Shown: positions 30,801 through 33,800, counted from the stretch's first letter. The stretch: DNA of 64,000 nt from Amoebidium appalachense (GCA_963693365.1 CAVNZM010000008.1:8808818-8872817), one strand, 5' to 3'. Made by a program: numbers and translations. Notes: generated by a model from the sequence alone, not told the origin.

Positions 30801-33800
30801 CGCGTGTCTGGAGTCCTTCCGCAGGGCGGATTGTGCCTGTGTGTGTGTGTGGGGGGGGGGGGGGGGGGGGGGGGGGAGGGTGCGGAGGGCGGAGAGAGAG
30901 AGTGTGTGTGTGTGTGCGGGGGGGGAGTGCTGAGGGGGGAGTGTGTGTGTGTATGTGTGTGGGGAGGGGGGGGGAGTGCGGAGGGCGGAGTGTGTGTGTG
31001 TGGGGGGGGGGGGGGGGGGGGGGGGGGGGGGGGGGGGGGGGGGGGGGGGGGGGAGGGGGAGTGTGTGTGTGCGTGCGGGGGGGGGGGGGGGGGGGGGGGG
31101 GGGGGGATGGGAAGAGGGGGGGGGAGGGGGGGTTTCAGGTGTGTGTGTGTGGGGGGGGGGGGGGGGGGGTTGAATGCGGAACACGGTACGAAGTACGCAT
31201 ACACGAAGGACACATGCGTCTGTGTGTATGCATGGGTGGGTGTGTGGGTGTGTGGTGGTGGTGGGGGGGGGGGGTGTGCGTGCGTTCGTGCGTGCGTGCG
31301 TGCGTGTGTGTGTGTGTGTGTGTGTGTGTGTGTGTGTGTGTGTGTGTGTGCGCGTGCGTGCGTGCGTGTGTGTGTGTGCGTGGTGGTGGTGGGGGGGGGG
31401 GGGGGGGGGGGGGGATCGAGGGAAGGGGAGGGGGGGGGGGGGGGGGGAGGATACGGGTGGGTGGTTAAGTGGGCGGGTTGAGTGTGAGTGTGAGTGTGAT
31501 TGTGATTGTGATTGTGAGTGTGAGTGTGAGTGAGTGTGTGTGTGTGTGTGTGTGTGTGTGTGTGTGTGTGTGTGTGTGTGTGTGTGTGTGTGTGTGTGTG
31601 TGTGTGCGCGCGAGTACGTGTGTGTGCGTGTGAAAGTGTGTGTGCGTGTGAGCTTGTGTGTGTGTGTGCGAGGGGTGTTGCATGCACACATACGTTGGCA
31701 TAACCCTTTTCAGTCGGACAGGCCATGCCCCGAGGGGGGGAGGGGAGCGGGGGGGGAGGGCGGAAAGGGAGGGAGGGAGGGGGGGGGGGGGGGGGGGGGG
31801 GGCATATGTGCACAGTCTAACACGTACATTGGCGTAACGCCCTCCTAGTCAGATAGACCATGCACGGTTGGGAAGAAAGGGCAGGGGAGAAGGTATAATA
31901 CACATGGCGGGCGCGCTGGCAGGCGCCGGGAGGGGGGGGGAGAAAGGGGGGGGGGGGGGGGGGGGGGGTTAAGGGAGGGGATATGTGCATGAGCTAAGAT
32001 GTACATTAGCATAACCCTTACTTATTCAAATAGGCCATGCACAGGGGGAGAGGGGAGGGTATAATACACATCGGACGCGGTCGGGCAAGGGGGGGGGGGG
32101 GGGGGGAAGGAGTTGCATAGTCCAACACATACATTAGCATAGCCCTTCTTAGTCAGATAGGCCATGACTATGCGGTCCATGTCTTCATCTCTGACCGTGC
32201 TGGTCGACGTGGCTACGGCTGGGCCCCCGGCCTTGGCTGTGCCGGCCTTCTTGCTGGTGTTCTTGGCTGCAGGTGTCGCCACTGCAAGAAAAAAGGTGGG
32301 AAAATATATTAATAAGTTAAACGGACAGAGGAATAAATGAATAAGTTGAAAGGAGGAAAGATAGAAGTAGGGGACAATAGCAGTGGAAAGGAAACAAGAG
32401 AAAGGTTTTTTTTTTTTTTTTTTGGGGGGGGGGGGGGGGGGGGGGGGGGGGGGGGGGGGGTAGAGGGGGAAAAGGGTCAGTGCAGAGATCGGATGAGGCA
32501 GGAGGGAGGGAGCGCTAGCGGTGGGGTGGCGGGTGATGCTGGTGGTGGGGGGGGGGGGGGGGGGGGGGGGGGGGGGCAGGCTGGGAGGAGGAGGTGTGTG
32601 TGTGTGTGTGTGTGTGGGGGGGGGGGGGGGGGGGGGGGGGGGGGGGCTAAAGGGGTGATAGGGGGAGGGTGGGAGGCAGGGAGGGGGGCGGGTGGGAAGG
32701 AAAGGGAAAAGGGAAAGGGGCAGGAAGAAGGGTAGAAGACAAACTTCAACGAGACCCCAGTGGTGAGGAGAGGGGGAAGGGTGGGGGGGAAGATAAAGCA
32801 CAGCAGAAGGTAATGAGTACAAGGACATATGTAGAACACCGTGTTCCACATAGAATAACGGCGTGCTAACTTGAAATAAAGAGAAAAGCACAAGGAAGGG
32901 AAAGCATATGCTGGGTATAATGGAGGGCTGGAAGGGAAAGGAGACGGAGAAAAAACAAACAGAAACAAAAGTAGAGGGTGGGATGGGGGTTTGCTTACAT
33001 TACTTAACGAGGCAAAAAAAAATGTTTGTACATGTATGTGTGTGTACGAATACGTGCATATGTGCATGTGTGCGAATCCTGACGTCAAGGCGAAGAGGAG
33101 GTGCAGTGAAGAAAAAAAAAAGGGAAGAGGCAGTGTTGTTTTCCTGGTCCGGGCCAAGAGGGGCAGAAAATGGTGTAAAGGGGGGAGCAGGGGAGAGGGG
33201 GGGGGGGGGGGGGGGGGGGGGGGGGGGGGGGGGGGGGGGGGGAATGACGGTAAACAAGCAGGAAAGTCAAATGAACGTGTGATGAATGGGGTAGTGTGGG
33301 TGGTTGAGTTTTGGGCCGAGGGGGGGGGGGGGGGGGGGGGGGGGTTGAATGCGGAACACGGTACGAAGTACGCATACACGACGAGAAGCATGGTGCAGGA
33401 CACATGCAAAGGCAAACATTCAAGCATGCAACATCAGCCATGTGCACAGTATGCGTCATAAGCAGAGCCCATCCTCAGGGAGGACCCAAGTCATCAATTG
33501 CGTCTGAGTTTCGACCCCTTAGCCCGCGTATATACGACGTTCCAACTCAGACAGCAGCATCAACTGAACTTGGACGGGTCAACCCGTCTTAATCAAAGAC
33601 GAGCAGGGTTGCTTATGCAAGAAAGGTGAGCAAAACGGTGAAGATGTGTGTGCAAACTAATGCAGTGCAGCGAAAAATGCGTATGTGCTTACAGATGCAC
33701 GACACAGAGCAACCATGCCCGGTTGCCGGGGGGGGGGGGGGGGGGGGGGGGGGGGGGGAGGGACAAGGGACGGAGGGCAGAGGAGGGGAGGAGCGAAAGA

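Follow-up and report, generated by a model that had tools for sequence, protein, structure and literature searches.

A predicted hammerhead ribozyme of S-G-C block order, probably split in its core, in a poly-C-inserting repeat of Amoebidium appalachense

We analysed a window of 64,000 nucleotides (nt) from Amoebidium appalachense (GCA_963693365.1, CAVNZM010000008.1:8808818-8872817), in which a repeat carries the parts of a hammerhead ribozyme in a non-circular order. In the reading that we prefer, and to which we give a probability of roughly two in three, the repeat is the 3′ tail of an abundant, poly-C-inserting, likely Penelope-like element. This tail would hold a hammerhead of the block order S (cleavage site), G (GAAA) and C (CUGAnGA), likely a monomer, which is split between positions A9 and G10.1 by two extra helices and is predicted to cut after GUU. 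The sole copy in the window with all ribozyme parts intact is copy F, whose full ribozyme domain lies at 33457-33617 on the minus strand. The limits in the original prediction, which was made on this DNA from the sequence alone (33464..33552), are thus too short: the domain begins about 65 nt further upstream.

The core blocks, their order and stems I and III

Copies A, G, D and F and the split copy C were found on the minus strand where the original prediction had placed them, with the core variants that it had listed: CUGAAGA (A), CUGAGGA (D and F), CUGAUGA (G and I) and CUGAUUA (C). The hammerhead core bases (C3 U4 G5 A6 N7 G8 A9, G12 A13 A14 A15.1, and U16.1 H17) are complete in F, A, D and G, and copies C (by its CUGAUUA) and I (which lacks GAAA) depart from the full consensus. 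Read 5′ to 3′ on the minus strand, the S block of copy F (33541..33552) consists of a stem III strand, the G-U-U triplet and the proximal stem I strand GGA. A looped-out segment and the distal stem I strand (33525-33522) follow at 33522..33540. The next part, 33502..33521, holds a 3-nt linker, the 3′ strand of stem II (33518-33513), GAAA (33512-33509) and the second stem III strand. The 3′ strand of a helix named helix 'I' (33500-33486) then runs directly into the stem I strand (33485-33479), both lying in 33479..33500, and the CUGAGGA core (33478-33472), one U and the 3′ strand of helix a (33470-33457) occupy 33457..33478. Beside the core, copy F has 3 + 4 pairs in stem I, 5 in stem II (with the upstream strand described below) and 8 in stem III, and G10.1-C11.1 is present. 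By analogy with known hammerheads, the cut is predicted between 33544 and 33543, after GUU, and in copy D between 30362 and 30361, in agreement with the positions given before.

The pseudoknotted, non-circular arrangement, in which stems I and II are linked by only a few nucleotides, was borne out by the sequence, and the order by a descriptor of all six block orders. This descriptor had two matches in the window (F and D), both S-G-C; in 40 shuffled windows it had five matches of any order, one of them S-G-C. The three circular orders (types I, II and III; C-G-S) had no match in the window. The order had been taken as undescribed, but it is already published as type SGC, with 583 sequences, five of which were shown to cleave (Eckert et al. 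2023, PMC10085705; this paper, PMC4209133, PMC8557442 and PMC10162972 are cited here from the accessible parts of their texts and supplements). The expectation that standard models would miss the motif was correct: Rfam gave no hammerhead among the best 150 of 367 rows for the window, and focused Rfam scans gave only chance-level matches (best hammerhead expect value, E, 4.7).

The pairing of stem III is 8/8 in F, 12/12 in A and 13/13 in D, as claimed, but only 7/8 in G, where a C.U mismatch adjoins the core and the triplet is UUU, not GUU. Stem I is divided into a proximal strand, a looped-out segment of 13–15 nt and a distal strand. Its distal pairing holds in F (4/4), D (3/3) and G (4/4), but copy A has mismatches (2/3 proximal, 3/4 distal) that the original prediction did not mention. 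Counted from the distal strand, the linker to stem II is UAA in F, GAA in D and two to three A in A and G; counted from the proximal strand, it has at least 17 nt, beyond the 0–8 of the published SGC pattern. The segment GGCU-AAGG-AGCC-GAAA of copy C had been proposed as a decayed type III hammerhead. This is not sustained: its GAAA continues into the stem III pairing of the family, and the preceding CCUAUGA is not a core.

It was also found that the stem I loop-outs of three subfamilies contain perfect palindromes, of 10 nt at 33527-33536, 17891-17900 and 30347-30356 and of 6 nt at 27330-27335, and a further one occurs in the loop of hairpin b (see below) of copy A (17950-17955). The palindromes of the loop-out and of hairpin b are possible dimer contacts. 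Two other structures were considered and dropped. One is a conserved hairpin in the loop-out, which is unsupported in G and is broken in the F type by a common variant at 33539. Another is a pseudoknot of the loop-out with the strand after stem III; helix 'I' is the better partner for that strand.

A canonical hammerhead assembled from two tandem copies, which had been raised as a caveat, is highly improbable. Penelope hammerheads often act as dimers (PMC4209133) and palindromic loops are present here. However, the copies are single and kilobases apart, and the window scan found no canonical order. Furthermore, the stem III partner lies upstream of GAAA, so that in the canonical order stem III would have to form in trans, in competition with a local helix of 8–13 base pairs (bp).

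The partner of stem II and the two extra helices

The main departure from the original prediction concerns stem II, for which the 5′ strand had been sought directly downstream of CUGAnGA. This downstream pairing is complete (6/6) in F, G and C, whereas A and D, neither of which had been listed, reach only 4/6. The claimed covariation was not found: GGCUCU is identical in A, D, F and G, and none of the six pairs shows a two-sided change. In both complete copies, F and A, the best partner of the strand preceding GAAA lies upstream instead. The pairing is GACCC/GGGUC in F, with five Watson-Crick pairs (−7.1 versus −5.1 kcal/mol downstream), and GACCUA/UAGGUC in A, with six (−6.7 versus −1.5 kcal/mol); the fifth pair changes on both sides, from C-G in F to U-A in A. 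The Rfam type I hammerhead model chooses the same upstream stem II in copy A, yet with an E of just 4.7. Thus, GACCC at 33576..33580, with G10.1 at 33580, is likely the true 5′ strand, detached from CUGAGGA. The earlier stem II is probably wrong, because the "2-nt insertion" reported after the core vanishes once the upstream GACC serves as the 5′ strand. The earlier stem II strand GGCUCU is contained in the 3′ strand of helix a (33470-33457).

From 5′ to 3′, copies F and A both carry a strand of helix a, hairpin b, GACC and helix 'I'. The 5′ strand of helix a (a′; 33606..33617, as 33617-33610 and 33608-33606) pairs with the bases after CUGAGGA, with 8/8 + 3/3 Watson-Crick pairs in F and 3 + 7 in A (distal part 7/7). 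Helix a is present in the lowest-energy fold of F, and its distal part has a pair probability of 0.96–0.99. Hairpin b (33582..33604) has 9 bp in F and 8/8 pairs in A, with pair probabilities of 0.90 and 0.43, respectively. Helix 'I', whose 5′ strand with an extension lies at 33561..33573, joins stems I and II; its pairs number 7/7 plus 6/6 in the extension in F, 7/7 in A, 8/8 in D and 4 + 4 in G, and its letters differ between the copies. It starts at most 2 bases after GACC and abuts stem I, and the placement of helix 'I' typical of type SGC is obtained only with the upstream stem II.

In an unconstrained fold of 33448-33622 of copy F, helices a, b, 'I' and III form while GACCC stays unpaired (z −2.75); of 200 shuffles, 2 did as well. 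The three upstream strands occurred in the correct order in none of 5000 shuffles of the 5′ region for F and in none of 5000 for A, by criteria chosen after the copies had been inspected; singly, the strands reach 5–32%. A split-core descriptor had one match in the window (F) and none in 100 shuffles, and by summed helix energies, pseudoknot terms excluded, the split state is the more stable one by about 14 kcal/mol in F and 13 in A. These features make it likely that the catalytic strand is interrupted between A9 and G10.1, where two extra helices close the gap. An unbroken block C, with the stem II strand at most 1–2 bases after CUGAnGA as in type SGC, is accordingly likely, not certainly, lacking, because unbroken pairing can still be drawn in F, G and C.

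The hammerhead backbone turns outward at the 9/10.1 junction. Type SGC carries a U there (PMC10085705) and Penelope hammerheads have a conserved base between positions 9 and 10.1 (PMC4209133); because of these extra bases, the junction can be regarded as tolerant of insertion. The same U bears on the simplest alternative, namely an ordinary type-SGC monomer in which GGCUCU after CUGAnGA forms stem II across a 1–2-nt insertion and the upstream helices are a mere scaffold. Type SGC has the U and cleaves as drawn (PMC10085705), and the downstream strand finds all six pairs in F, G and C, each time with a different 5′ strand. We nevertheless regard this monomer as unlikely, in view of the 4/6 pairs in A and D and the lack of two-sided changes, the occupation of GGG and the following bases by helix a, and the Naiad tails discussed below, which have no such downstream strand.

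Another possibility, to which we give slightly less weight, is a switch that uses both stem II partners. The full RNA would toggle between the split active fold and an off state, in which the 5′ strand of hairpin b is paired with the core GAUGGG, and copies lacking the 5′ domain would refold as plain SGC. The 3′ strand of hairpin b, AGACGGG (33583-33590), mimics the core end GAUGGG (33467-33474), so that the 5′ strand of b could bind either; the downstream strand is still complementary in three copies; and the loop-out palindromes of F, A/D and G could supply dimer contacts. The probability of the off state is 0.55 in A but just 0.04 in F. Moreover, matches tolerant of G.U pairs easily arise by chance, and Naiad_Plae has no such mimic.

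For the preferred split core, the core bases, stems I and III, helices 'I', a and b, the complementary upstream GACC, the poly-C 3′ ends and the ragged 5′ ends can be read directly in the DNA, and the folding may be envisaged as follows. The nested scaffold of a, b, 'I' and III would form first, and stems I and II would then close across it as two pseudoknots. The outcome would be a normal hammerhead centre at which five helices meet, two of them inserted between A9 and G10.1. Such a topology can be derived from that of type SGC by joining its two ends and opening the chain anew at the 9/10.1 junction. By analogy with what has been proposed for other Penelope-like elements, cleavage may trim tandem or read-through precursor transcripts.

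The carrier repeat, its copies and the host gene

The DNA of the window is eukaryotic, its exons being numerous and short, and it contains long runs of poly-C and (CA)n. The ribozyme-bearing repeat is present as nine pieces on the minus strand (17739-33727), with a weak tenth on the plus strand at 42501. Copy F (33345..33727, 383 nt) is flanked by two poly-C runs, and its 3′ end is GCAUUCAA, followed by poly-C. Copy A (17739..17986, where 17986 is the minimum upstream extent) has the whole domain, with the 5′ strand of stem II at 17941-17936 and two stem I mismatches. Copy D (30194..30393) is 5′-truncated within the upstream stem II strand and lacks a′ and b. Copy G (27150..27372), of a third subfamily, is 5′-truncated where helix 'I' starts, carries the stem III mismatch beside the core and has an uncertain 3′ end. 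Copy C (24170..24618) is decayed, and simple repeats together with a G-type 3′ piece (24331-24384) interrupt it at its own internal C-run; copy I (25527..25569; E 0.004) is a remnant. The other minus-strand pieces include a 3′-end fragment of the A/D subfamily flanked by poly-C runs (18874..18964) and one of the F subfamily followed by poly-C (31170..31206). The plus-strand piece (42501..42585; E 0.044) is a weak 3′-end fragment of a related subfamily; a C-run follows it, and it lies within what resembles an intron of a methyltransferase gene.

Among the ten pieces, the six of A/D or F type that retain a 3′ end have identical terminal bases directly before poly-C, and the 3′ ends of the G-type pieces are ill-defined. 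The 5′ ends are ragged, at distances of 37 to at least 383 nt from the 3′ terminus, and a poly-A tail is absent. Copies D and G both start at the border of stem II and helix 'I'. Truncations or interruptions also fall at C-runs of the element itself (30393, 27372 and 24480, with loose contig ends at 33480-33490), which suggests microhomology with the poly-C target. Neither a tandem nor an inverted partner was found for any copy in the window, nor were retrozyme-like tandem monomers or long terminal repeats (LTRs) delimited by hammerheads; the copies are single and continuous across the predicted cut site. Therefore, the reverse-transcribed templates were uncut or rejoined, and this suggests slow or regulated cutting.

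The repeat is abundant: in two DNA runs of one study, 9,894 of 3,054,011 and 5,837 of 3,337,194 contigs match F at ≥80%, which is not a copy number. In these contigs, no alternative letter reaches 5% at the core positions. Copy F differs from their majority at 33591, 33575, 33574, 33540 and 33484, and the majority letter at 33484 changes a stem I G.U pair into G-C. All copies in the window are short 3′ pieces. The carrier is likely a Penelope-like (Naiad/Chlamys-type) retroelement; this assignment is made because of the ribozyme, the target and the truncation, and a reverse transcriptase or endonuclease was not found in 150 of the 256 reading frames of the window. Two stable hairpins lie upstream of copy A (18040-18140, minus strand), the second of which, with a GA bulge and a short inner stem, resembles by eye the hairpin just after the stop codon of Chlamys-2_cRei (PMC8557442).

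The host gene is TAF5 (TFIID subunit 5; 16766..32300, minus strand), recognized by TFIID_NTD2 and WD40 matches and by the translations of its many short exons; among single-stretch matches in the PDB, TAF5 is also the best (E 9.5e-51). Copies A, C, D, G and I are intronic in TAF5 on the sense strand, and copy F lies 5′ of the first placeable exon, probably in intron 1. In 16500-36000, 57 poly-C runs are on the strand of the copies and 11 on the other, and the copies follow the poly-C strand. The upstream stem II strand is 203–236 nt from the 3′ end of the repeat, and for this reason shorter truncated copies would lose it and could not build the split core. Such loss by truncation may help an essential gene to tolerate many sense-strand copies. 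Copies D and G lack the upstream stem II strand by truncation, A, C and I have lesions, and only F is whole; this pattern fits, without proving, tolerance by an essential host gene.

The same observations can be read as signs of a non-catalytic relic, a fold inherited from a ribozyme-bearing ancestor or serving as a protein-binding RNA domain, of which no present member cuts. Every copy except F has a lesion, the triplet is GUU, the copies are continuous across the cut site, and sense copies persist in an essential gene. On the other hand, the core bases are kept in three subfamilies while the stems change, the contigs on F have no core variant above 5%, and lesions in single copies are expected after insertion. 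There is, in our estimate, only a small chance that this relic is the correct account.

Several further points weigh against the split ribozyme itself. One group concerns its structure: in copy C the downstream strand forms 6/6 pairs and the upstream one only 3/6; copy G pairs 6/6 downstream and its upstream strand is missing; the proximal part of stem I has just 3–4 pairs; and GUU is a slower triplet than GUC or GUA. The letters of copy F at 33575-33574 permit a hairpin competing for GACCC. Another group concerns the statistics. The complete copies are two (F and A), between which helices a and b are nearly invariant. Copy A folds no better than shuffles (z −0.99, 32/200) and has the rival pairing of probability 0.55, which buries G8-A9. 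In a five-row alignment, in which G is misplaced and truncated rows are included, 6 of 44 pairs of the split model show two-sided change, matched by 20 of 500 shuffles, and the covariation score is equalled by 58 of 500, a weak signal. The last group concerns the element: no copy begins or ends at the predicted cut, the contigs on F show no pile-up of ends, and no reverse transcriptase or GIY-YIG match was found in 150 of the 256 reading frames of the window. A candidate reverse transcriptase tail upstream of copy A (frame 18227-18439) gave only four repeat-protein artefacts and no real relative, and was rejected. The Chlamys passages in the accessible part of PMC8557442 show no such wiring.

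Other features of the window are as follows. TAF5 introns contain degenerate tandem duplicates of exon ends and splice junctions (31804-32166, 24763-24927 and about 17200-17260), with runs of poly-C or (CA)n between them. A gene for a SAM-dependent methyltransferase (Methyltransf_12), which we take to be METTL2/6-like, has exons at about 39700-43600 on the plus strand. Three related single-exon bZIP-like frames occur on the minus strand (45047-45427, 47246-48349 and 60341-60991), the second of which is present in EukProt in a cluster without relatives. A 108-nt direct repeat (10118-10225 and 10635-10734, 75% alike) is unrelated to the hammerhead family.

Relation to known hammerheads and retroelements

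The S-G-C order itself is known, and the repeat would work like type SGC (HRIMA-1 and variants, PMC10085705), with which it shares the order, the 3-nt linker and the full core consensus. In type SGC, a linker of about 3 nt connects stems I and II, and helix 'I' joins their other sides; here also, helix 'I' begins one base after stem II and abuts stem I, as in the published alignment (PMC10085705). The repeat differs in that block C is likely split, with two extra helices, that helix 'I' is joined 3′ to stem III, and that stem I is interrupted by the 13–15-nt loop-out; its domain has about 160 nt, versus at most 104 in SGC. Furthermore, it is a predicted ribozyme in a repeat of genomic DNA, whereas the rearranged hammerheads, with shown cleavage for SGC, stem from assembled metatranscriptomes (PMC10085705, Supplementary Note 1). 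That study assumed that CUGAnGA and its two flanking strands are separable by at most 1–2 bases. The canonical and minimal type I hammerheads known from Penelope-like elements (Cervera and de la Pena 2014, PMC4209133) share the retroelement terminal-repeat setting and the 9/10.1 base, but they are circular (C-G-S) and dimer-dependent with a weak palindromic stem III, in contrast to the non-circular order and long stem III found here.

A scan of metagenome, viral and genome contig collections for the motif gave no match. A looser pattern gave at least 120 loci from 24 of the 64 parts of the metagenome collection, none of them similar to the repeat, and their 365,493 bases contain no match to the split wiring. 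Three of the metagenome contigs (L040, L080 and L090) carry tandem arrays of minimal type I hammerheads of 65–68 nt and shorter; their hosts are probably animals.

Naiad and Chlamys elements were reported without canonical hammerheads, eight being marked as half cores ("HHR_half_core"; Craig et al. 2021, PMC8557442). By eye, we read the same split wiring in the 3′ tails of Naiad_Plae, an Acropora element and a Beroe element, the latter two being the records that precede Naiad_Aacu and Naiad_Mley in the supplement of PMC8557442. The order in these tails is that found here: a′, b, the stem II strand, helix 'I', S, G, the stem I strand, CUGAUGA and a. Their stem letters are unrelated to the repeat, and 0–2 bases follow A9. 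This comparison covered all 28 matches to C-CUGAnGA in the supplement and 58 of 79 matches to four CGAAAC words, others being hidden by line breaks. Two nematode Naiad tails (near part 13 of the supplement) read as intact type CSG, an order published from just two sequences.

The repeat has the 5′ truncation, fixed 3′ end, microsatellite target and lack of a poly-A tail that are seen in Naiad and Chlamys; pseudo-LTR (pLTR) tandem repeats or inverted 5′-truncated partners were not found in the window, and some Naiads are listed without a pLTR (PMC8557442). An ORF of the kind typical of both, with an N-terminal GIY-YIG domain, a CxC motif and a C-terminal reverse transcriptase, was not found in 150 of the 256 reading frames of the window, where every copy is a short 3′ piece. 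With Naiad the repeat shares the location near the 3′ end, the very high copy number, the 5′ truncation and a microsatellite target. It differs in targeting poly-C rather than (TA)n, in its triplet (GUU, not GUA) and in the interrupted stem I; also, the fold is not described in the accessible text of PMC8557442. With Chlamys it shares (C)n insertion and 5′ truncation, and three consensus ends finish in AACCCC like this repeat (PMC8557442).

Published work has treated CUGAnGA, with the stems on either side, as a unit that cannot be opened, and its non-circular hammerheads come from metatranscriptomes (PMC10085705). In our literature search, mostly of journals outside subscription, no published description of the split-core wiring was found, type SGC occurred only in its founding paper (PMC10085705), and the accessible part of PMC10162972 contains no passage on extra helices. 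The poly-C target, the interrupted stem I and the intronic setting are new here. A broader proposal, in our view less likely than not, is that an active hammerhead with five helices and a split core drives, in a eukaryote outside the animals, a Penelope-like family that targets poly-C. The wiring would then predate animals and link Naiad with Chlamys. The RNA could also switch to plain SGC or to an off state; it would thus stand, in evolution, between the viroid-like SGC ribozymes and the Naiad form and would be a conditional cutter within host introns.

If a natural core open between A9 and G10.1 is true, the range of hammerhead topologies would be wider, and the split would offer an engineering port for two helices at the active site. 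The split wiring would also explain the apparent lack in Naiad of the ribozyme found in other Penelope-like elements, and thousands of sense-strand intronic copies would constitute a natural test of splicing versus intronic self-cleavage.

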